This document shows positions 4,102-47,350 of a DNA stretch of 64,000 nt, piece by piece (positions within the stretch are counted from its first letter, which is position 1; each line of letters starts with the position of its first letter). The notes beneath the pieces were generated by a model that saw only the letters and a program-made list of their open reading frames with translations, did not search any database and was not told where the DNA came from. The stretch is from a phage: sequence record PZ583742.1; one strand, written 5' to 3'. Both the position numbers and the translations under genes were made by a program.

Positions 4102-4509
4102 ATGAACAACGTAACTGCTAAAGATATCCAAGTTAAAACCATCCGCACCGACGCTAACCCACACAACCAAAACCGCATCCGCAAATCCTGGGTCCTGGCA
4201 TGTGATGAAGCATCTGCTGCCCGTCTGCAGTCTCTGCCGCAAGAAATTAAATTCATGCTGTACGGTGTGATTGATACTGATGTATCTGATAAGTGGATTG
4301 AACTGATGCGTAATCACTACAACGATTCACTGGCTGCTGGTGCTAAACTGGTTATCGACCGTGACGGTTCCGAACGTCTCGAAGATGATTACTGTGTTGA
4401 CTTCGACGACCACCTGGTCCAAGCTGGTTCTATTATTGCTGCGCAACTTCCAGAGTATATTGAATCTCTTCCGGAAGCTATCCGCAAACAAATGGCAGTT
4501 GTTGCGTGA
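4102..4509 (+). CDS. RpbA-like protein (by position between 46 and 45 and by size)
   Basis: 135-aa ORF with strongly biased codon use; start choice (4084 vs 4102) uncertain. Confidence 0.4.
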   Translation: MNNVTAKDIQVKTIRTDANPHNQNRIRKSWVLACDEASAARLQSLPQEIKFMLYGVIDTDVSDKWIELMRNHYNDSLAAGAKLVIDRDGSERLEDDYCVDFDDHLVQAGSIIAAQLPEYIESLPEAIRKQMAVVA

Positions 4510-5393
4510 ATTTGATTTATAAAATAACCTTTATAACAAGGGAACAAAATAATGAATTCCCTTGTTATTATATTGGTTCAAAGGTTGATACGACATTTAA
4601 TGGCCAAAATATTCTCGATAAAAATAATAAAATTTATACAGGTTCTCCGAATTCAAAATATACTACGCTGTATAATGAATTAATTGATAGCGGTGACTAT
4701 ATTGTTACTATCATTGGGGAAACAAAACAGGACCCAAGGAAAATAGAAAATATTTTTCAAATGTCAGTTAAAGCTGTAACCAATGAGAAATACTTTAATA
4801 AAACGTATGCACACGACAAAAGCCGCTATGATGCTCCTGGATATGCTCCATACCGAAACTTGAAAACGGGTAAAGTTGTTAAATTACATCCATCTGAACT
4901 TACATCTGATTATGTTGGTGTTCGTAAAGATTGTTCAATTTCAGATAAGCACATTCAAGCAATTAAAGACTTCCAAAAAGAATATTGGACTGACGAAGCT
5001 CGACAAGCAAGGTCTGTTGAAGTCAAAAATCGTTATAAAGATGTTGAGTATGCTTTAAAATTCAAAGCTATAATGAATACATCTGAAGTATATGAAAAAT
5101 ATTTAAAATCAATTACTGAATATTGGAATAATTCAGATAATAGAATAAAGGCTTCAAAACGAGCAACCGAACGAAATGCCAACCCTGAATTTAAAGAAAA
5201 ATTTAGGAAATCTAAAGCAAGAGGAACCTGGTTACAGTATGAAGATGAACTTAAAGCATTGTGGAATGCTTTAGGCCAACCAGGGTATATTAAGTTTAGA
5301 AAACACGCCATTGAACATGGGTTTAATGATGAAAACTATCAGGGTGCAATCCGGTCCTGGTCAAATTATTATGTTAATAGGAAAATGAAATGA
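4506..5393 (+). CDS. GIY-YIG-like homing endonuclease (Seg-like), free-standing
   Basis: N-terminal LIYKITF...CYYIGSK motif pair; AT-rich ORF wedged between conserved genes; GTG start. Confidence 0.5.
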   Translation: MNLIYKITFITREQNNEFPCYYIGSKVDTTFNGQNILDKNNKIYTGSPNSKYTTLYNELIDSGDYIVTIIGETKQDPRKIENIFQMSVKAVTNEKYFNKTYAHDKSRYDAPGYAPYRNLKTGKVVKLHPSELTSDYVGVRKDCSISDKHIQAIKDFQKEYWTDEARQARSVEVKNRYKDVEYALKFKAIMNTSEVYEKYLKSITEYWNNSDNRIKASKRATERNANPEFKEKFRKSKARGTWLQYEDELKALWNALGQPGYIKFRKHAIEHGFNDENYQGAIRSWSNYYVNRKMK

Positions 5394-15350: not shown

Positions 15351-15379
15351 TTTACAACACCATAAAAGGGGTGTACCAT
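15351..15379 (+). promoter_or_regulatory. early sigma70 promoter
   Basis: TTTACA, 17-nt spacer, TACCAT. Confidence 0.5.
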
Positions 15380-15380
15380 T

Positions 15381-15413
15381 ATCCCATCAACTACTGATGA
15401 GGATAATAAAATG
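15381..15413 (+). repeat. conserved 5' leader cassette, copy 1 of 3
   Basis: ATCCCATCAACTACTGATGAGGATAATAAAATG; near-identical copies at 24432-24463 and 28551-28583. Confidence 0.8.
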
Positions 15414-15659
15414 TTATTAGTTAATGTGCATTACCAGTTCAAATCTGAAGAAGCTCTCCAAAAGTATGCTGATATTTGTGAGCATAATAAAAGAACAGCT
15501 GCCATTGTTGGTCTGAAGCCTTTTAAAATTTTGGATTGCACCTTGAACAGAGCAAGGCGCTGGTGTAGTGTTGCCTGTCATGCTTCAGTTGAAGGGAATG
15601 ATTATTTTTTCATTACTTTCAATGCACAAGATTTTCATTTAATTAATGAATTAAAATAG
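15411..15659 (+). CDS. hypothetical protein (82 aa)
   Basis: ORF behind early promoter and conserved leader. Confidence 0.4.
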   Translation: MLLVNVHYQFKSEEALQKYADICEHNKRTAAIVGLKPFKILDCTLNRARRWCSVACHASVEGNDYFFITFNAQDFHLINELK

Positions 15660-23799: not shown

Positions 23800-23855
23800 T
23801 TTACTTACTCCCCTCCTAATGACATAATGGCCTTTCTTACAACAGAGAGGCCATT

Positions 23856-24416
23856 ATGAACATCATCAAATCTGATACCGAACCCAACCAGTTAAAATTT
23901 AGTGAAATGGAGATAGCTTCATTATTTGAGTGTCGCACATCAAAGGTTGATAAGACCTTGCATTCAAACGTTAACTCAATCATCAAGTCAAGGTTATCTG
24001 TACCTGATACAGTCTTGTATCGTGGGGTTACCCAGCAAGAGATTGATTTGTTAGATGAAGCAAAAGAATCAATGCAACCTTTTGAATTTGGAAGGATAAC
24101 CTCCTTTACAGAAGACTATGGTATTGCCAGGGATTTTGCTGCAATGGAATATGTGTCAAGGACTATCATCAGATTGAATCATACAAAAGCTTTTTGTTAC
24201 CATGATGCGATGCGCAAAATCGCGCTTGACGTTCCACTGGAATTCTTCAATACTGCTTCTGGTTCCGAACAGGCAGCAACGTTAAGACGTGAAGAATACA
24301 TGGACATGATTGATTCTGAGCTTGAATGGTTTGTTCCAGTTGACCAGAAATTCGTGGTGGTTGATGCTGGATTTGTTGGTGATTATTATGTTCTTGACTG
24401 TGTACAAGAGCAATAA
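23856..24416 (+). CDS. ADP-ribosyltransferase (R-S-EXE type; ModB-like by position)
   Basis: LYRG Arg, SFT motif and ELE in SELEWFVPV; 186 aa. Confidence 0.55.
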   Translation: MNIIKSDTEPNQLKFSEMEIASLFECRTSKVDKTLHSNVNSIIKSRLSVPDTVLYRGVTQQEIDLLDEAKESMQPFEFGRITSFTEDYGIARDFAAMEYVSRTIIRLNHTKAFCYHDAMRKIALDVPLEFFNTASGSEQAATLRREEYMDMIDSELEWFVPVDQKFVVVDAGFVGDYYVLDCVQEQ

Positions 24417-32073: not shown

Positions 32074-33906
32074 ATGATTGAAAATAAAATTGAAATGCTT
32101 TCAGATAAAGACCATTGTTTGAAACGTCCGGGAATGTACATCGGAAGTGTTTCATATGAAGAATACGAAAGATTTTTATTTGGTGAGTATACTAAAGTAT
32201 CTTATGTGGCGGGTGTATTAAAACTAGTTGATGAGATTATCGACAACTCGGTTGATGAAGCTATACGTACAAATTTCAAATTTGCCAATAAAATTTCCGT
32301 TGATATCTCTTTGACTGATAACAAAGTTACTGTTGAAGATAATGGTCGTGGTATTCCGCAGGCTGTTGTCATAACTCCAGAAGGTGAAGAATTACCTGGC
32401 CCTGTAGCGGCCTGGACGAAAACCAAAGCGGGTGGGAATTTCGGTGATGATAAAGAACGTGTAACCGGCGGCCAGAATGGTGTTGGTTCAAGTCTTACCA
32501 ATATTTTTTCAATCCTTTTTACTGGGACCACATCTGACGGTAAAAATGAGCTTCGTGTAAGTTGTTCAAATAATGCCGATAATGTATCATGGAAAACCAA
32601 ACCAACCAAATCCAATGGTACCAAGGTTGAGTTTATTCCAGACTTTAGTCATTTTGAAATGAACAGTTTTGATAAAATTTATCTGGATATTACACTTGAC
32701 CGTCTGCAGACTCTTGCTGTTGTTTATCCTGATATTGAATTCAAATTCAATGGTAAAAAGGTACAAGGTCAGTTTAAAAAGTTTGCTAAACAATATGATG
32801 ATGAAATCATTATCCAGGAACAAGATAATTGCTCAATTGCAATCGGTCGGTCACCTGACGGATTCAGACATCTGACATATGTCAACAACATCCACACAAA
32901 AAATGGTGGACACCATATTGAATGCGTTATGGATGAAATGTGTGATGTGTTAATCCCGGCGATTAAACGCAAGTATAAAATTGAAGTAACCAAAGCACGC
33001 GTTAAAGAATGTATTACATTGTTGATGTTTATTCGCAATATGAAGAACATGCGATTTGATTCCCAGACCAAGGAGCGATTGACTTCCACTGCCGGTGAAA
33101 TTAAATCACATATCCAGGTCAATGGCAAAAAGTTAGCTGGTTCGTTGTTAAAATCAGAAGCTATTCTGACGCCTATCATTGAAGCTGCATTGGCTCGTAA
33201 ATTGGCTGCAGAGAAAGCAGCAGAGACTAAAGCAAATAAGAAAGCTTCAAAGGCCAAGGTACAAAAGCATATCAAAGCCAACGAATGGGGTAATGATAAG
33301 CTGGAAACGACTCTATTCCTGACCGAAGGAGATTCTGCAACGGGTCCGTTTATCAAGGTTCGTGACCGTGAATTGCAAGGTGCTTATCCGTTACGTGGTA
33401 AGTTTAAAAACACATGGGGTCTGAAAGCTGTTGAAGTTATGAAGAACGCTGAAGCCTTTGATGTGTGTGCGATTACTGGTTTAACGATTGGACAACCGGC
33501 CGAGAATATGAATTACCGAAACATTGCTATCATGACAGATGCGGATGTGGATGGTGTTGGTAGTATCTATCCATCGTTATTGGCGTTTTTCAGTAACTGG
33601 CCAGAGCTGTTCCATGAAGGACGAATTCGCTTTGTGAAAACTCCTGTTATTATTGCACAGCTCAAAGATAAACAAGAATGGTTCTATTCTCTTCCTGATT
33701 ACGAAGAAGCTAAGGATAAACTTCCGAAGCATACCATTCGATATATCAAGGGGCTTGGTTCTCTGGAAGATTCAGAGTACAAACGCGTATTGCTCGAGCC
33801 AGTATTCGAAGTTGTTCAATTGCCCGACAATTGGAAAGAACTGTTCGAAATGCTATTCGGTAAAGATTCCCAGCAGCGTAAAGACTGGATGAATGCGACG
33901 CTATAA
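32074..33906 (+). CDS. 39: DNA topoisomerase II large subunit (gp39 with the gene-60 part contiguous)
   Basis: GyrB-like ATPase N-terminus, TOPRIM LTEGDSATGP; single 610-aa frame. Confidence 0.9.
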   Translation: MIENKIEMLSDKDHCLKRPGMYIGSVSYEEYERFLFGEYTKVSYVAGVLKLVDEIIDNSVDEAIRTNFKFANKISVDISLTDNKVTVEDNGRGIPQAVVITPEGEELPGPVAAWTKTKAGGNFGDDKERVTGGQNGVGSSLTNIFSILFTGTTSDGKNELRVSCSNNADNVSWKTKPTKSNGTKVEFIPDFSHFEMNSFDKIYLDITLDRLQTLAVVYPDIEFKFNGKKVQGQFKKFAKQYDDEIIIQEQDNCSIAIGRSPDGFRHLTYVNNIHTKNGGHHIECVMDEMCDVLIPAIKRKYKIEVTKARVKECITLLMFIRNMKNMRFDSQTKERLTSTAGEIKSHIQVNGKKLAGSLLKSEAILTPIIEAALARKLAAEKAAETKANKKASKAKVQKHIKANEWGNDKLETTLFLTEGDSATGPFIKVRDRELQGAYPLRGKFKNTWGLKAVEVMKNAEAFDVCAITGLTIGQPAENMNYRNIAIMTDADVDGVGSIYPSLLAFFSNWPELFHEGRIRFVKTPVIIAQLKDKQEWFYSLPDYEEAKDKLPKHTIRYIKGLGSLEDSEYKRVLLEPVFEVVQLPDNWKELFEMLFGKDSQQRKDWMNATL

Positions 33907-34462: not shown

Positions 34463-34646
34463 TATGGAACTGTTTGATAAGGCTATCCATAAAGAATACC
34501 GTGTTATCCAACGATTTTTTGATATAAGAGAAGCTGAAGAGTTTAAAGAACGCTTCAAAGAAATCCGTATTAAAATAGCTTCAGACACCGCAACAAAGGA
34601 TGAACTTCTTGAAGTTGCAGAATTAATCAAACGTAACATAAAGTGA
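34443..34646 (+). CDS. hypothetical protein (67 aa)
   Basis: AGGAG SD then ATG 34443 (ORF-track TTG start 34437 less likely). Confidence 0.4.
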   Translation: MTNFKVNMELFDKAIHKEYRVIQRFFDIREAEEFKERFKEIRIKIASDTATKDELLEVAELIKRNIK

Positions 34647-34653
34647 GAAAAAC

Positions 34654-36888
34654 ATGATTTTAGAAACTGAAAAAGAAACAATCCTTGGTAATGGTGCCAA
34701 AGCATCAGCATTCACAATCCAGGCATCTCCAAAGGTGTTTAAGATTCTGACCAGCGACCTTTATACAAACAAGGTGCGCGCGGTTGTTCGTGAGCTGATT
34801 ACCAATATGATTGATGCTCATATGCTCAATGGCTGTCAGGATAAATTCATTGTTCAAGCTCCTGGCGAACTGGACCCACGTTTTGTATGTCGTGACTTTG
34901 GTCCAGGTATGAGTGATTTCCAGATTCGTGGTGATGAAAATACCCCAGGTCTGTATAACAGTTTCTTTGCATCATCCAAGGCTGAATCCAACGATTTTAT
35001 TGGTGGCTTTGGTCTGGGTTCTAAATCTCCGTTCAGTTATACAGAGACGTTTAGCCTGATTTCATATCATGATGGTCAAGTTAATGGTTATGTCGCTTAT
35101 ATGGACGGCGATGGTCCACAGATTAAGCCAACCTTTAGCGAACCAATGAAACCTGGCGACCGCACAGGGATTGAAGTTGTTGTCCCGGTTGATAGTAATG
35201 ATTTTGGTAAGTTCCGCCACGAGATTGCATATATCATGCGCCCATTTGCTGGACTGGCTGAAGTACAAGGCGTAGGCGAAATTAATTATTTCCCGGAATT
35301 TGATGATTATTATGCTCCAGAGCGTATTGATTATAGCAGCCCAGAACGTTATGGACTTTATGCAATTTATGGCGGAATTGTTTATCCGATTGATGGCGGG
35401 TATACAAAGAAAACCTGGATGACTGCCAAAAATGATGTTGTCTTTATTAAGTTCCCGATGGGTTCGCTGGATATCGCACCTTCTCGTGAAGCATTATCGC
35501 TGGACAAACGTACGGTCGCAAATATCGTTGAACGTATTGAAACCCTTGATAAGAAAGTCATGGAAGACGATTGTAAGAAATGGCAGGAATCAGAATGTCT
35601 CCGCCATACATATCGCGAATTGCAGAATCTGAATTATGAAGCTCGTAATTTTCTGAAAGCTCGTAATGCTGAAACGAAATTTACGAAATCACAATTGACC
35701 TTTAACCAGATGTACGAAATGTTCGAGCTGGACAAAGACCTTATTAATGCCGGGGTTGTTTATGATATCTATCGTGACACTCGTCTGAAACGTCTGCGCA
35801 ACTCAAGCTCAAACTCGAACACAGCAAGTCTGACGAGCATGTTTGGTATTCAGAATGATACCTTGAACATTGTTATTGATGATGTTAAAGGGCGAATTGC
35901 GATGATTCGCGGTATCAGTTCAATGTTGTATGATACCAGTGCAAAAGCCAAAAAGCTTATTGCATCTGGTAAAGTCCCGACTCGTCAGGGTAGTAGTTTA
36001 CTGTTTGTTGACCCGACCAGCGAAATTCAAACACGGTTGATGGTTCAACTCCAGGAACGATTTAAAGGCGATACAGTTAATATCTATCGTACGTCTGAAC
36101 TGACTGCCCTTGTAAAAGACTGGATTCCGGTTGCGGACCCGAAAGAGCGTGTTAAGTCAAAGACTCCATCGGTGATTCGTTGGACTAAAACTAATGGCAA
36201 ATGGCAGTCTGTTGAAGAATTTACATGTGCAGCTGATGCAGAGGAAATCGATGGTTATGCTGTATTCATTAACCGCAGTAGCATTTCCCCGTTGAATCAG
36301 GAATATGGCACCACGACCTTCGGGACCCAGACATTGTGTAAACTGGCAAACCTGTTGGAAATCAATGAATTCTGTGTTATTCGTCCACAGCTTCAGAAAA
36401 AGGTTACCAAGCTGGCGCAGTGTGATTGTCTGATTGAAGCTGCGGTCAATCGTTATGTAGAATTGATTGATGCGGTTGATGTGGACCAGTACATTGCCGC
36501 TTCAAGCCGTTCGCGTTATTATATTCCTATCCTGTCTGAATATGCAGAACTGAATTTTATGTTCAAGTATTTTTATGCAAAAGATGTTCAGAAAGATGTG
36601 AATACTGACTATGCCGAACTAATGCAGTTCAATAAGTTCTTTGCTTATAACGCATATAACAGTGGAACGGTTGATAAAACCATGCAGGAAACACTGGTCC
36701 TTTGTAATAAGATTTATTACGACCTGACCAAAAACGCTTCAGTAACAAGCGATAAAATGGTTTTTGAATTTGAAAAGAATCACCCGATTGTTTCACACTT
36801 TTTATATAACCGTAACGCTATGTCAACTGAACAAGTACAGAACGTTGCTCAAATCATGAAGGCCGTGGAAGCGGCCAATAAGGAATAA
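34654..36888 (+). CDS. rIIA: rIIA protein (GHKL-type ATPase fold)
   Basis: N-terminus MILETEKETILGNG and N-box VRELITNMIDA match T4 rIIA; 744 aa. Confidence 0.9.
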   Translation: MILETEKETILGNGAKASAFTIQASPKVFKILTSDLYTNKVRAVVRELITNMIDAHMLNGCQDKFIVQAPGELDPRFVCRDFGPGMSDFQIRGDENTPGLYNSFFASSKAESNDFIGGFGLGSKSPFSYTETFSLISYHDGQVNGYVAYMDGDGPQIKPTFSEPMKPGDRTGIEVVVPVDSNDFGKFRHEIAYIMRPFAGLAEVQGVGEINYFPEFDDYYAPERIDYSSPERYGLYAIYGGIVYPIDGGYTKKTWMTAKNDVVFIKFPMGSLDIAPSREALSLDKRTVANIVERIETLDKKVMEDDCKKWQESECLRHTYRELQNLNYEARNFLKARNAETKFTKSQLTFNQMYEMFELDKDLINAGVVYDIYRDTRLKRLRNSSSNSNTASLTSMFGIQNDTLNIVIDDVKGRIAMIRGISSMLYDTSAKAKKLIASGKVPTRQGSSLLFVDPTSEIQTRLMVQLQERFKGDTVNIYRTSELTALVKDWIPVADPKERVKSKTPSVIRWTKTNGKWQSVEEFTCAADAEEIDGYAVFINRSSISPLNQEYGTTTFGTQTLCKLANLLEINEFCVIRPQLQKKVTKLAQCDCLIEAAVNRYVELIDAVDVDQYIAASSRSRYYIPILSEYAELNFMFKYFYAKDVQKDVNTDYAELMQFNKFFAYNAYNSGTVDKTMQETLVLCNKIYYDLTKNASVTSDKMVFEFEKNHPIVSHFLYNRNAMSTEQVQNVAQIMKAVEAANKE

Positions 36889-36889
36889 T

Positions 36890-37861
36890 ATGTTTAATAT
36901 CAAATGTATGTCTAAAGCCGAACAAGCTGATGTGGTCCAGATGTATTCAACAGGCAATTATACCCAGCCTGAATTGGCAGAATATTTTGCCGTGTCCGTC
37001 GACACCATTCGCCGCGTTTTGAAAAATGATAAAGAATCAAAATTAGCTAAAACCATTTCTGCATCACTGAAAGCAGCTGTTGGCGTGGCGATTAATGCTC
37101 CGGTGACAGTAACGGTTGAAGTCCCGGTTACTGATACAATCGGTGGAAGCCGCCCGGAAATCGTATGGAACGCATCGAGTAAATTCGTTTCCATCACTGA
37201 AGGCCGTACAGTCTGGAACGCAACAAAAGACCATAAACACTTTGATGATATTATTCAGGCATTGATTGAATTCCGTTATGAAGATGCTATCGAGTTTATC
37301 TCAATCAAAGCTGCAGTACAAAAATATGTGAAAGGTGATGTGCGTATTGAAGGTGGTAGTTTGTTCTATCAGGGAATTGAACTGCGCTCTGGCCTGGTTA
37401 CTCGTATCATTGATTCAATGCAAAATGGTGAAGACTTTGAATTCTATCTGCCGTTCCTTGAGAATCTCCTTGAGAATCCGAGTGAGAAAGCTGTACAGCG
37501 TTTGTTTGACTTCCTGGTTGCAAACGATATCGAAATCACCGAAGACGGTCATTTCATCGCATGGAAAATGGTTCGTGCAACTTACAAAGATTGTCACTCA
37601 AACACATTCGACAACAGCCCTGGTCAATATGTTAAAATGCCGCGCTCTCGTGTGAATGACAATGACGAACAGACCTGTTCAACCGGGTTGCATGTTTGCT
37701 CTAAAGGCTATATCGGAAGTGGTTTTGGTCATGGTGATGGACGCATCGTATCCTGTAAAGTTCACCCGCGTGATGTTGTAAGTATCCCGGTGGATTATGG
37801 GGATAGTAAGATGAGGGTCTGTGGTTACCTGGTCCTTGATGATGTAACTGAACAATTTTAA
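36890..37861 (+). CDS. rIIB: rIIB protein
   Basis: MFNIKCMSKAEQ...VSVDTIRRVLKN and C-terminal HVCSK...VHPRDVVSIP match T4 rIIB. Confidence 0.9.
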   Translation: MFNIKCMSKAEQADVVQMYSTGNYTQPELAEYFAVSVDTIRRVLKNDKESKLAKTISASLKAAVGVAINAPVTVTVEVPVTDTIGGSRPEIVWNASSKFVSITEGRTVWNATKDHKHFDDIIQALIEFRYEDAIEFISIKAAVQKYVKGDVRIEGGSLFYQGIELRSGLVTRIIDSMQNGEDFEFYLPFLENLLENPSEKAVQRLFDFLVANDIEITEDGHFIAWKMVRATYKDCHSNTFDNSPGQYVKMPRSRVNDNDEQTCSTGLHVCSKGYIGSGFGHGDGRIVSCKVHPRDVVSIPVDYGDSKMRVCGYLVLDDVTEQF

Positions 37862-37868
37862 ATTAATC

Positions 37869-37882
37869 GGGGCTTCGGCCCC
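37869..37882 (+). other. UUCG-tetraloop hairpin (no T run) before next SD
   Basis: GGGGC-TTCG-GCCCC, same element as 6091-6104. Confidence 0.5.
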
Positions 37883-38095: not shown

Positions 38096-38416
38096 ATGAT
38101 TAACTATATGAACGTTGGTGATGAATCTATTAACGAAATTCGGTTGCATGGTAATCATGTTGCGGATATTGTTTATTGTGTTGATTGCCATTATGCTTCT
38201 ACAAAGTCAACTGGCCGGTTATATGCGAGAGACATCATTCTTGCAACGAAAGAAGAACTTCGTAGTCTGGACCATTCCACTCTAGCCGAAAGTGCCAGAA
38301 TTTATTATGGCGTCGTTCATGTAGACAAAGTTTATATTGGCAGTGATTATCAAGAGCAAGCTGAGCAAAATTCTTTGGATATTGTCGAAAAATCCGATAT
38401 GTATTTTAAAGGATGA
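38096..38416 (+). CDS. hypothetical protein (106 aa)
   Basis: ATG 3 nt after preceding stop. Confidence 0.4.
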   Translation: MINYMNVGDESINEIRLHGNHVADIVYCVDCHYASTKSTGRLYARDIILATKEELRSLDHSTLAESARIYYGVVHVDKVYIGSDYQEQAEQNSLDIVEKSDMYFKG

Positions 38417-38420
38417 GCTG

Positions 38421-39014
38421 ATGATTCAGAAGAGTAAAACATGGGAGCATCTGAAAAAGATGCCCTCCTTTCTTTATACAAAGGAAGACTTAACCCCTGA
38501 ATCCCTGCAAAAGATTGTAGACACGGCTAGGTATTCATTGCGTAAAGACCCAGGTCAGGACCGTGAGCAAGTCATGCAAAGATGTATGGTGGCCACAATG
38601 GCTGAACAAGCTATTGCTAAATGGACCTCCGGTTTTTTATGTGGCGGTGATGAAGATTACGATAATCCTTATTCCTTTGCATTTGATGTAGTTTCGAAGG
38701 AAGGGGTAAGAATCGAAGTCAAGACTCATCAGTCTGGTTCCAAATGGATATCCGTGCATACTGGTCACCAGGGTGATTATCCGCATGGTTACGGGGTCAA
38801 TCTTGGTCCTTTTATGCAACACAAGCTTGCTGACCTTATGATTATGTTTAATGTAAAAGAGACTCTCAAAGGTTATAGATTTAAACCAAAATTCCTTGCT
38901 GGACCTGGTGCTTTCGTTCCTGAGTCTGGTCTTGTGCAGAAGTCACAAGGGGATGGTTGGTACCTCCGTTCTTGTTCAGAAGAAAAATTTCCCTATCACC
39001 GGTTTACAAGCTGA
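38421..39014 (+). CDS. hypothetical protein (197 aa), possible PD-(D/E)xK nuclease
   Basis: FAFDVV...RIEVKT resembles a D...E-x-K core; lies where T4 denB sits, but I cannot confirm similarity. Confidence 0.35.
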   Translation: MIQKSKTWEHLKKMPSFLYTKEDLTPESLQKIVDTARYSLRKDPGQDREQVMQRCMVATMAEQAIAKWTSGFLCGGDEDYDNPYSFAFDVVSKEGVRIEVKTHQSGSKWISVHTGHQGDYPHGYGVNLGPFMQHKLADLMIMFNVKETLKGYRFKPKFLAGPGAFVPESGLVQKSQGDGWYLRSCSEEKFPYHRFTS

Positions 39015-39026
39015 ACCAACTGTGTA

Positions 39027-39060
39027 ATAATGTCCTCATACCAACAAATGAGGACATTAT
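39027..39060 (+). promoter_or_regulatory. SD-sequestering hairpin (translational control element)
   Basis: 13-bp perfect stem ATAATGTCCTCAT/ATGAGGACATTAT; 3' arm contains GAGGA SD and ends 2 nt before ATG 39062. Confidence 0.5.
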
Positions 39061-39061
39061 C

Positions 39062-39337
39062 ATGGAACACGTTACTACTCACAACATCAAACAAATCCTT
39101 ATCCAAGCACTCAAAAACAACAACATCAATTTTCCAACCCATGAAATTTTTGATGTGGCATTCAACGAAGTCCAGGGTCAAGTTGCATATTATGACGTTA
39201 TCATTTATCTTTCAGAATTTGAAGTATACCACCTGACTGAAATTGCTTTCTATCTATATCGTGGGACTGCAGATTTTACTGGGGTCGTGAATGCAGTTGG
39301 CGCATATAAAGAAGTTAAAGAACAAATGCACAATTAA
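39062..39337 (+). CDS. hypothetical protein (91 aa)
   Basis: ATG directly after the hairpin. Confidence 0.4.
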   Translation: MEHVTTHNIKQILIQALKNNNINFPTHEIFDVAFNEVQGQVAYYDVIIYLSEFEVYHLTEIAFYLYRGTADFTGVVNAVGAYKEVKEQMHN

Positions 39338-39348
39338 TTAAAAAGTAG

Positions 39349-39378
39349 TGTACATCAGTATGGAGTCTATTGTATAAT
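39349..39378 (+). promoter_or_regulatory. early sigma70 promoter
   Basis: TGTACA, 18-nt spacer, TATAAT; CCATACTGAGTTAC leader. Confidence 0.55.
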
Positions 39379-39416
39379 GATTCCATACTGAGTTACCAAA
39401 CAGACTGGAGAATAAA

Positions 39417-39572
39417 ATGAAACCTGCTCAATATGCAATGACTTTATACCTTGAAGTTAATGGCGATATTACTGAATTTTTTAAATTAATGCAACAGCGC
39501 GGAAAAAGTTTTGCAGTTACTGAGCGTCAATTTTACGCGTGTCGCAAAAATACATACAATCGTTATGCATGA
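39417..39572 (+). CDS. hypothetical small protein (51 aa)
   Basis: GGAGAATAAA SD region then ATG. Confidence 0.35.
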   Translation: MKPAQYAMTLYLEVNGDITEFFKLMQQRGKSFAVTERQFYACRKNTYNRYA

Positions 39573-39582
39573 GGAAAACAAA

Positions 39583-39780
39583 ATGGATATCAAATTATAT
39601 TACGCCAAGCACAAAGTTACAGGTATGGTTGTTGCTGCCATGTATGATGCGTCAGGTGATGGTGATGATATTACTACAGAATTGTCTCTTTCTGAATGTA
39701 AATTTCTTCGCCCGCTAGTTGCATCAAAGCGTGATTTAAAAAGCTTATTGATGGAAAACTGGATAATGTTGATGGCATAG
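39583..39780 (+). CDS. hypothetical protein (65 aa)
   Basis: GAGGA SD then ATG. Confidence 0.35.
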   Translation: MDIKLYYAKHKVTGMVVAAMYDASGDGDDITTELSLSECKFLRPLVASKRDLKSLLMENWIMLMA

Positions 39781-40920: not shown

Positions 40921-41370
40921 ATGACTACTTACATGACCCGTCGTGACGTACTGAATGCTGGCGCTACCACTGTTGCTTACATCCATAATGGCAATTATGT
41001 TGCAGGGCGTCCAACTAAAGAAGCTATCACTCAACCAGGTTTTTATTTCGTGGTTAAAGGTGAAGGTGAATCACGTATTGTTGCCGCACGTTTTTATGTT
41101 GGTAACCAACGTTCACAACAAGGGTTTGACACTGTATTAAGTCACATCCGCAAACAGCGTTCTCAACTGTCTCGCACAATGGCGAACAATGGGGTTATCT
41201 ATGAAGTCCTGTTTGTCCCAGTTTCTAAAATGAAACCTCTGACAACTGGTTACGGTAAAGGTCAAATTGCGATGGCGTTCACTCGCTCACATAATTCTGA
41301 TTGTCAGACCCTTTCAGAAATGAATCGCATGCTTGCTGATAACTTTAAATTCATTCTGCAGAGCTATTAA
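40921..41370 (+). CDS. hypothetical protein (149 aa); Ndd-like by position and size only
   Basis: GAGGAAA SD then ATG; no motif I can verify. Confidence 0.35.
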
Positions 41371-45381: not shown

Positions 45382-45546
45382 ATGAGTCATAACTTAGAGA
45401 ACACCATCACCGGTCAACGTACACGCGAGCTGGCTTGCTTTGAGGAATTCCTTGGAGCTGATTTTAAGTTCCAGGAACCAGTTGAACAGATGTATCAGGA
45501 ATATGTTGTACACATGGAAAATCATGTGTACAACCCAGAGGAATAA
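45382..45546 (+). CDS. hypothetical small protein (54 aa)
   Basis: AAGGG SD then ATG; 3' end overlaps the asiA promoter. Confidence 0.3.
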   Translation: MSHNLENTITGQRTRELACFEEFLGADFKFQEPVEQMYQEYVVHMENHVYNPEE

Positions 45547-46567: not shown

Positions 46568-47350
46568 CTATAGCCAGGAGCCGTAGATAGTGCCTGTAGC
46601 GCCCCATGAAGGAGAACTTCCGAATACAGCTCGTCCAGCTCCGCCTTGTGAGCCGTATGTAACGCGTCGTCCGTAAGCGCCGCCACCAGCCCCACCCGCG
46701 TCGCCGCCATTACCACCACCCCACTGTCCACCAAAGCTACCACCGCCACCTGGTCCGGTATAACTAGCGTTGCCGCCTGGGTTTACGGCGCCATTAGTAC
46801 CACCTAATCCATATGGTCTACCGCCACCGCCACCAGCTGTACCCGCCACAAGCCAAGAGTTATTTGAAGCACATCCGGCACCGCCGCCGCCCCCTGAAGC
46901 TATAACGCCATAGTTCCAGATACGGAGTCTGCCACCAATGTCGTTTTGAATTACATCACCACCATTTGTACCCGCTACCCAAACACGGGTCCCACCGTTA
47001 CCACCACGGCCCCACATATGGACCCCGCCGTGAATATTCAAAGTAACGTATTCATTAGGGGTATCGCCATACATAAAGAACAACGGAACATCTTTAGTAT
47101 AAGATACTAAATCACCTGTGATATTAAACACAATAGGGGCAGCACCGGCTTCAAAACAACGGTCTCTAAACCATTGCCCGTTAAAGTTATGGTCGGCTCC
47201 AAGTGTGTGAATTATTTCAACAGACCGACCTACCATATTACTCATCCAAAACGGAATACCCATTCTCAATCGTTGGGCAGCGCCGCCCATCCAAGGGTCC
47301 CCAGTTTGTACCCTCGCAGACCACCCTACCCACGGTCCTACTACTGCCAT
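46568..47350 (-). CDS. 38: gp38 receptor-binding adhesin (T2-type, glycine-rich motifs)
   Basis: C-terminal half has poly-Gly blocks separated by short variable segments; GGAGG SD before ATG at 47350. Confidence 0.8.

Follow-up and report, generated by a model that had tools for sequence, protein, structure and literature searches.

A putative early promoter nested in a hairpin over a ribosome-binding site downstream of denB in a T4-like coliphage: a probable transcript-specific gate on translation

Examination of 64,000 nucleotides of phage DNA (sequence record PZ583742.1, the whole stretch being called the window hereafter) revealed, directly after the DNA endonuclease gene denB, a perfect hairpin whose 3' arm is the ribosome-binding site (RBS) of the next open reading frame, ORF 39062, and whose 5' arm at the same time forms the -10 region of a predicted early promoter. 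We consider it probable that this hairpin is a transcript-specific translational gate, carried by a PeSL-like early-promoter cassette, which would silence the gene on RNA arriving from upstream and leave it open on RNA from its own promoter.

By megablast, the window belongs to a T4-like coliphage of the genus Gaprivervirus (VR7/SP18/RZ group), the relatives being RZ, VR7, VR20, VR25, VR26, SP18 and others at 94-98% identity. ORF 39062 sits in the denB-ndd hyperplastic region of T4-type genomes, and denB is closely packed with both of the ORFs that precede it. The genes of the region are:

34654-36888: rIIA
36890-37861: rIIB
between rIIB and denB: two small ORFs
38421-39014, + strand: denB (DNA endonuclease IV; phrog_1360, E 2e-80; annotated in the same way in phage RZ and relatives)
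39012-39014, + strand: denB stop codon TGA, within the promoter spacer and 13 nt ahead of the main stem
39062-39337, + strand: the ORF after denB, 91 aa (phrog_17571; VR7 gp288 family)
between ORF 39062-39337 and ndd: further small ORFs
40921-41370: ndd
from 41770: gene 52

Around rIIA, MotA-box-like middle-promoter candidates consisting of (A/C)CGCTTCA, 11-13 nt and TAAAAT or TATTAT are found at 34549, 36496 and 36733, before rIIA and within its 3' end, in positions analogous to those of PrIIA, PrIIB1 and PrIIB2, the middle promoters of the T4 rII region (PMC2988021). Between rIIB and the next ORF, at 37869-37882, GGGGCTTCGGCCCC forms a hairpin whose tetraloop is C(UUCG)G and which has no + strand U run; similar GGCCCC/GGGGCC UUCG hairpins precede the genes starting at 47350 (- strand) and 18628.

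The hairpin after denB is made up of the following parts:

39020-39024, + strand: 5' strand of an extension helix, CUGUG (CCAUG in relatives), pairing with CAUGG at 39061-39065, which includes the AUG
39027-39039, + strand: hairpin 5' arm, ATAATGTCCTCAT, holding the anti-SD GTCCTC and the ATAAT of the -10
39040-39047, + strand: hairpin loop, ACCAACAA, 8 nt
39048-39060, + strand: hairpin 3' arm, ATGAGGACATTAT, holding the SD GAGGA (39050-39054) and the SD-AUG spacer

A preliminary description of this DNA had reported a perfect 13-bp stem with an 8-nt loop and the GAGGA SD inside its 3' arm; both statements hold, the arms 39027-39039 and 39048-39060 being 100% complementary and the SD at 39050-39054 lying within the second of them. 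Its placing of the end of the arm 2 nt before the ATG was loose and not wrong, as the arm ends at 39060 and only C39061 intervenes before the ATG at 39062-39064. RNA folding, which had been proposed as a check, bears the structure out: the segment 39000-39100 folds at -24.9 kcal/mol (z = -4.5), a value as good being reached by 0 of 200 shuffles. The minimum free energy is -16.6 kcal/mol for the hairpin alone and -19.1 with the 5-bp extension, and the SD is paired with a computed probability of 1.00, the AUG with one of 0.77-0.92. This is the only perfect hairpin of at least 13 bp (loop 3-12) in the 64-kb window, and it is judged non-random because 30 simulations of the window by a second-order Markov model gave no stem of 12 bp or longer. 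When about 105 crudely called genes were compared, ORF 39062 came first in SD pairing probability and second in local fold energy. Other perfect hairpins in the window, of 12 bp each, are found at 45505-45534 (GTTGTACACATG/CATGTGTACAAC), where the stem holds the TGTACA -35 of a promoter-like site at 45527, and at 4533-4568 (ATAACAAGGGAA/TTCCCTTGTTAT), after ORF 4102-4509.

Several other roles for the structure were considered and rejected. A Rho-independent terminator is discounted by a stem with G-C at 4 of its 13 pairs, by the lack of a U run (CAUGGAAC follows) and by a terminator scan that was negative on the + strand; the T run had rightly been called absent from the outset, CATGGAACACG being what follows the stem. 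The SD lacks the GGAG of a RegB site, the stem is too short for RNase III, and an RNA thermometer was considered and dropped. A scan of 38300-39700 against Rfam (E <= 1) returned two sub-threshold chance matches only.

The promoter that overlaps the 5' arm is predicted from the following elements:

38980-38990, + strand: A/T-rich run AAGAAAAATTT at about -58 to -48, a UP-element position as judged from the sequence
39002-39008, + strand: -35 element GTTTACA, within the last denB codons
39023-39031, + strand: TGn (39023-39025) and -10 hexamer AATAAT (39026-39031, -12 to -7)
39038, + strand: predicted transcription start A39038, 7 nt after -7, placed from the T4 early consensus register

A weak TTTACA/TAATAA pair had been noticed just upstream of the hairpin. 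Its TTTACA (39003-39008) was retained, and the promoter scan preferred another -10, AATAAT (39026-39031), which follows after a 17-bp spacer, overlaps the 5' arm and brings the pair to 10/12 with an extended -10 TG. With T39031 set at -7, GTTTAC falls at -36 to -31, TGn at -15 to -13, an A at -11 and CTC at -3 to -1. The consensus of T4 early promoters has GTTTAC at these same positions, A at -11, T at -7, a variable T at -12 and a preference for C at -3 to -1, the latter being reported as C-rich also in RB69, RB49 and 44RR (PMC1524935), and T4-type early promoters carry A-rich UP-like regions (PMC2988021, PMC1524935). The sequence 39002-39031 also fits the T4/PST PeSL promoter consensus, TTTACW-N17-TAYWAT (PMC4122927), except for the A at the first base of the -10 (-12). 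The predicted promoter is in exact register with the T4 early sigma-70 consensus. Its -10 and discriminator are the 5' arm of the hairpin, and RNA starting at A39038, the penultimate base of that arm, would hold only 2 nt of it. Neither a late promoter (TATAAATA) nor a MotA box is found in the element, the nearest + strand TATAAATA being at 33902, and a search of the accessible literature returned no mapped T4-group start sites at the denB junction. The next promoter downstream (39349-39391, TGTACA-18-TATAAT, before ORF 39417) has its -10 bracketed by a 9-bp stem, CAGTATGGA/TCCATACTG, a PeSL-type arrangement in which the SD is not included.

Two kinds of RNA are expected to cross the RBS. The best promoter-like site within 600 nt upstream of denB scores 9/12, and the terminator scan found no + strand terminator between rIIB and 39062; with denB thus lacking both a strong promoter of its own and a terminator after it, any RNA encoding denB should enter the hairpin, and read-through RNA across 39014-39062 can be presumed. 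On RNA starting upstream, opening of the SD-to-AUG stretch (39048-39064) is calculated to cost 15.8 kcal/mol and opening of a 30S-sized window 19.6-19.7 kcal/mol. For RNA that begins at 39038 or 39040 the corresponding figure is about 6 kcal/mol, a remainder that comes from weak pairing between the SD and the distant stretch 39096-39102 (total -5.5 kcal/mol).

We propose that RNA polymerase arriving from upstream on rIIB/denB transcripts would transcribe both arms, and that the 13-bp stem with its 5-bp extension would then bury the SD and the AUG and keep ORF 39062 silent on this RNA. RNA from the nested promoter would start at about A39038, past the 5' arm, with a 24-nt unstructured A/C-rich leader, of which the loop sequence (39040-39047) would be part, and an open RBS. 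As the gene's own mRNA is predicted to lack the inhibitory arm, the hairpin would discriminate between transcripts, and synthesis of the protein would be tied to its own immediate-early promoter and insulated from later read-through transcription. The effect on translation and the start site are both predictions from sequence. The earlier suggestion that the hairpin serves translational control and not termination thus survives as to the sequestered SD and AUG and the missing terminator, and would fall as to control on the gene's own mRNA, from which the 5' arm is predicted to be absent. Mutations in the 5' arm would be a confounded test of the stem unless the origin of the RNA is controlled, because they also alter the -10 and discriminator. 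A secondary effect may be that untranslated read-through RNA is exposed to Rho-dependent termination or decay, which would fit the attenuator behaviour reported for PeSL stem-loops.

Conservation of the element was examined within the genus and beyond it. In the 13 Gaprivervirus genomes compared, the 3' arm is invariant (13/13). Most of them carry a C at position 13 of the 5' arm, so that the loop-closing pair alone is opened and a stem of 12 bp remains, and at position 11 phage fDHCT2 has U for C, which makes a G.U pair. The extension strand occurs in two versions, CUGUG and CCAUG, each of which pairs with CAUGG (by U.G/G.U in one case and C-G/A-U in the other); the two spacer variants, CTGTGT and CCATGT, both keep the extended -10 TG. 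The tolerance of G.U pairs in natural variants points to RNA and not DNA as the level at which the pairing matters. In fDHCT2 the homologue of ORF 39062 has a 17-nt deletion that causes a frameshift, and it is unannotated in the record (retrieved segment 1010-1075); the promoter and the hairpin, with its one G.U pair, are kept.

Across genera, five denB junctions from GenBank (T4, Kanagawavirus Q7622, Mosigvirus JN02, Dhakavirus VR5 and Tegunavirus fHe-Yen9-01) and 49 denB loci from IMG/VR were compared. In most lineages of these 49 + 5 loci, a GTTTACA-N17-(TGn)-10 promoter is present at the denB stop or directly behind it, and in at least four groups the -10 and the next 6-8 nt pair with the downstream SD and spacer. 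One group, for example, has TATAGTACTCCT ... AGGAGTACTATA-ATG where the window has ATAATGTCCTCAT ... ATGAGGACATTAT-c-ATG, and loops elsewhere are similar A/C-rich strings such as ACACCAACAA and ACAAACAA. The ORFs that follow these homologous elements are unrelated, their products starting with MEHVTTHN.., MQFNPNQY.., MKKFLKGIW.., MIKVTIMVW.. or MKRFGLFNL... In an alignment of 16 distinct elements, 83.6% of cells pair as against 32-52% with the partner slid, changes on both sides are seen in 9 of 14 pairs and none of 500 shuffles reaches the observed score, with the proviso that this alignment, being N-padded and hand-registered to the structure, is biased towards it and represents about 4-5 independent lineages. 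Plain MAFFT alignment misregisters the 3' arms. Part of the covariation is a shift of the SD (GAGGA vs GGAG), and the 3' arm is in any case constrained by SD function. The most telling component is that the SD-AUG spacer, normally unconstrained, changes along with the -10: ACATTAT occurs with ATAATGT, and GTACTATA with TATAGTAC. Homologous elements in other genera keep the predicted pairing by compensatory changes.

The specificity of the pairing was assessed by computing duplexes between each -10 hexamer plus 8 nt and each stretch of 20 nt plus AUG for 13 early-promoter/gene pairs in the window:

ORF 39062, cognate duplex: -18.0 kcal/mol
23856 (ADP-ribosyltransferase in the ModB position, phrog_832), cognate duplex: -21.1 kcal/mol
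15411 (goF-like gene), cognate duplex: -8.9 kcal/mol
other 10 pairs in the window, cognate duplexes: -1.4 to -5.4 kcal/mol
non-cognate combinations, means: about -3 to -8 kcal/mol

The anti-RBS pairing is gene-specific and no by-product of promoter composition. In T4 itself, modB has a GTTTACT-17-TATGAT promoter whose TGATAGCTTC pairs with GAGGCTATCA(TG) in a duplex of -19.0 kcal/mol (2631-2700 of the retrieved T4 segment, minus strand), the sole strong case among about 15 promoter/gene pairs in T4 1-50 kb. Anti-RBS pairing is absent from the majority of early promoter/gene pairs, both of the window and of T4, and the arrangement is no general rule. The predicted design recurs at independent loci with unrelated stem sequences, the model phage T4 included.

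Other loci of the window bear on the same layout. At 23800-23858, a GTTTACT-17-CATAAT promoter precedes the ADP-ribosyltransferase gene in the ModB position (23856-24416), and its -10 together with the 9 nt behind it (CAUAAUGGCCUUUCU) makes 15 bp, one of them G.U, with AGAGAGGCCAUUAUG, which is the SD and AUG. A weaker version is seen at 15351-15413, where a GTTTACA-17-TACCAT promoter precedes the goF-like gene (15411-15659) and TATCC-CATCA pairs with TGATG-AGGATA just ahead of the ATG. At 15351, 24401, 59803 and 60236 the -10 is followed by a near-identical leader, ..(T/C)CC(T/C)ATCAACTAC(TGA)TGAGGA.., and the same ..ATCAACTAC.. leader stands after denB in T4 and Dhakavirus. This recurrence suggests a shared and possibly mobile promoter-leader cassette with TCCT just before +1.

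The product of ORF 39062 matches no Pfam or NCBIfam family, and the submitter labels "MafI immunity protein" and "similar to HNH nuclease" are unsupported. The gene is an ORFan with close homologues only in Gaprivervirus: an index of 5.8 billion proteins returned the Gaprivervirus cluster only, and the homologues in IMG/VR are those of VR20, VR25 and VR26 only. Outside this close group there are three weak or distant relatives. An exhaustive HMMER search found one representative at 54% identity, for which no match was located in viral contigs, and tblastn found two distant homologues elsewhere in the genome, in Salmonella phage CGG4-1 and Enterobacter phage EnA02, which are about 36-40% identical to that representative and are located between gene 52 and motA, not after denB. 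Each of these two has its own GTTTAC promoter (upstream of position 401 in the retrieved segments), and in CGG4-1 a 9-bp pairing joins the -10 region (TATTACTTT) to GGAGTAATA at the SD; the two loci can be taken only as further weak candidates for promoter-RBS pairing. An AF2 model of the product was mediocre (pLDDT 74.7, the five models disagreeing) and had no match in the PDB at E < 0.1.

The PeSL elements described in T4-type phages are among the closest known counterparts of this cassette. They consist, in order, of a stop codon, an A/T-rich tract, an early promoter, a stem-loop, an SD and a start codon (Arbiol 2010; Comeau 2014), and a stem-loop overlapping the -10 is one of five described subclasses. 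The PeSL papers treat the stem as a terminator or attenuator and as a recombination site (PMC2839356, PMC4122927) and never mention translation. RB49-type PeSL stems are GGGG/CCCC-rich, and those of T4/PST are said to be upstream of the promoter. The element at 39027 shares with them the preceding stop codon, the A/T-rich tract, the early promoter, the -10-overlapping stem, the SD and ATG at its 3' end, the hyperplastic surroundings with an adjacent ORFan, and the presence of the same cassette before unrelated ORFs. For the recombination or mini-circle formation ascribed to PeSLs, the different cargo behind the cassette in different genera is at most indirect evidence. The element differs from them in that its 3' arm is the RBS itself, that A/U pairs predominate in a stem whose core is anti-SD, and that a U run is lacking after it.

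It could be asked, in line with the authors of the PeSL papers, whether the stem acts chiefly on transcription or RNA stability, in that it attenuates or terminates denB transcription or protects the 3' end of a processed denB mRNA, with the occlusion of the RBS a side effect. Besides the subclass and the surroundings just mentioned, one RB49/phi1 PeSL stem-loop that reduced downstream lacZ as much as a strong terminator speaks for such a role (PMC2839356 sec. 14). We hold it to be unlikely, as no U run follows the stem (CAUGGAACACG), the + strand terminator scan is negative, and a terminator or stabiliser needs no SD, spacer and AUG as its 3' arm, yet these are conserved by compensatory change. 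Attenuation and gating are not exclusive: a block of translation followed by Rho termination could produce attenuation.

Slightly less probable again is a cis-acting repressor or switch on the gene's own mRNA, responding to a factor, temperature or processing, in which case the promoter hexamers would be incidental or weak, or transcription would start upstream of 39027. The stem is highly stable and does occlude the SD and AUG, the hexamer departs from the consensus at -12 (A, not T), and phages of the VR7 group are reportedly, from the title of the VR7 genome paper, low-temperature phages. Against this stand a promoter in the exact T4 early register that is conserved across genera at the denB junction, with no other promoter lying between denB and the stem; the stability of the stem, which at -16.6 to -19 kcal/mol would not melt at physiological temperatures; and the lack of any Rfam family or ligand-type structure. 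Such a switch would also leave unexplained why the 5' arm falls exactly on the -10 and discriminator at three independent loci.

Translational coupling, in which ribosomes finishing denB would melt the stem and ORF 39062 would be translated in proportion to denB, seems to us improbable. The denB stop (39012-39014) is close upstream, and a terminating ribosome should, given its footprint, unwind the 5-bp extension at 39020-39024 that pairs the AUG. The 13-bp stem, however, begins 13 nt past the stop, beyond the reach of a ribosome (about +11 to +15 nt), so that the SD would remain in the helix; across genera the stop lies at varying distances from the stem, from inside the spacer to more than 40 nt upstream, whereas the relation of promoter and stem is fixed; and the identity of the 5' arm with the -10 is left without explanation. 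Finally, an element acting as DNA, either an operator for a dimeric protein or a recombination or cruciform site in PeSL-type shuffling, is very improbable, for although the perfect inverted repeat is centred at about +5 of the promoter in typical operator geometry and PeSLs have been proposed as recombination sites, with unrelated ORFs after homologous elements (PMC2839356), stem sequences differ between genera and between paralogous elements with complementarity kept, which leaves no common recognition sequence, natural variants use G.U pairs that are neutral only in RNA, and the 3' arm is always the RBS, a relation that recombination does not need, even though it may well make use of these cassettes.

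The proposed transcript-specific gate has a well-studied counterpart. In T4 e, soc, 49, I-TevI/II/III and segB and in Aeh1 mobE, an RBS-sequestering helix contains a nested late promoter (PMC3014915, PMC2988022). Long early and middle transcripts of e-type genes are silent, and transcripts from the late promoter in the 5' strand are translated, with a 100-fold effect in the case of e (PMC3014915 sec. 29); experiments have established the mechanism for T4 e, I-TevI and Aeh1 mobE (PMC3014915 sec. 29; PMC2988022 sec. 12), and the genes regulated by such nested-promoter helices "are all late genes" (PMC2988022 sec. 12). In e, soc and I-TevI the helix contains the SD and/or the AUG; that at 39027 contains both, with a comparable energy gap between long and short RNA, and as in e and I-TevI the promoter is placed so that its RNA, here from a predicted start, is without the 5' strand. 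In contrast to e and I-TevI, which have a late promoter (TATAAATA) and are delayed until late, the element has an early sigma-70 promoter, and its temporal logic would be reversed, confining expression to the immediate-early period. T4 modB has the same early-promoter-nested anti-RBS layout in front of a different gene and with a different stem sequence, and is to be seen as a paralogous instance of the design and no homologue of the element. No description of the pairing upstream of T4 modB, nor of any early-promoter-nested RBS hairpin, was found in the searchable literature, and an older one may exist. Most likely, the element represents a known T4 device in an early-promoter form, as opposed to a novel type of system.

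Whether hairpins of this type form a distinct recurrent T4-like device, insulating immediate-early genes from read-through and providing a rationale for at least one class of PeSL stem-loops, is a broader proposal that we put forward tentatively, with rather less confidence than the gate at ORF 39062. Its candidate instances would be modB, both in T4 and in the phage of the window, the gene that follows denB in several genera, and weaker versions elsewhere.

T4 is the textbook case of temporal gene control. If the proposal is right, a known device that has so far been seen to delay translation until late would be used in the opposite direction, confining the synthesis of selected genes to the first minutes of infection and keeping densely stacked early cassettes translationally independent of read-through. 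PeSL stem-loops would gain a concrete function, Rho-mediated attenuation would follow from the block of translation, and the joint travel of promoter and RBS in one mobile cassette would be explained. As T4 modB, which codes for a toxic ADP-ribosyltransferase, has this layout too, the idea can be tested directly in the model phage. For the annotation of phage genomes, our findings suggest that an RBS hairpin beside a phage promoter should not be taken as repression of the gene's own mRNA.
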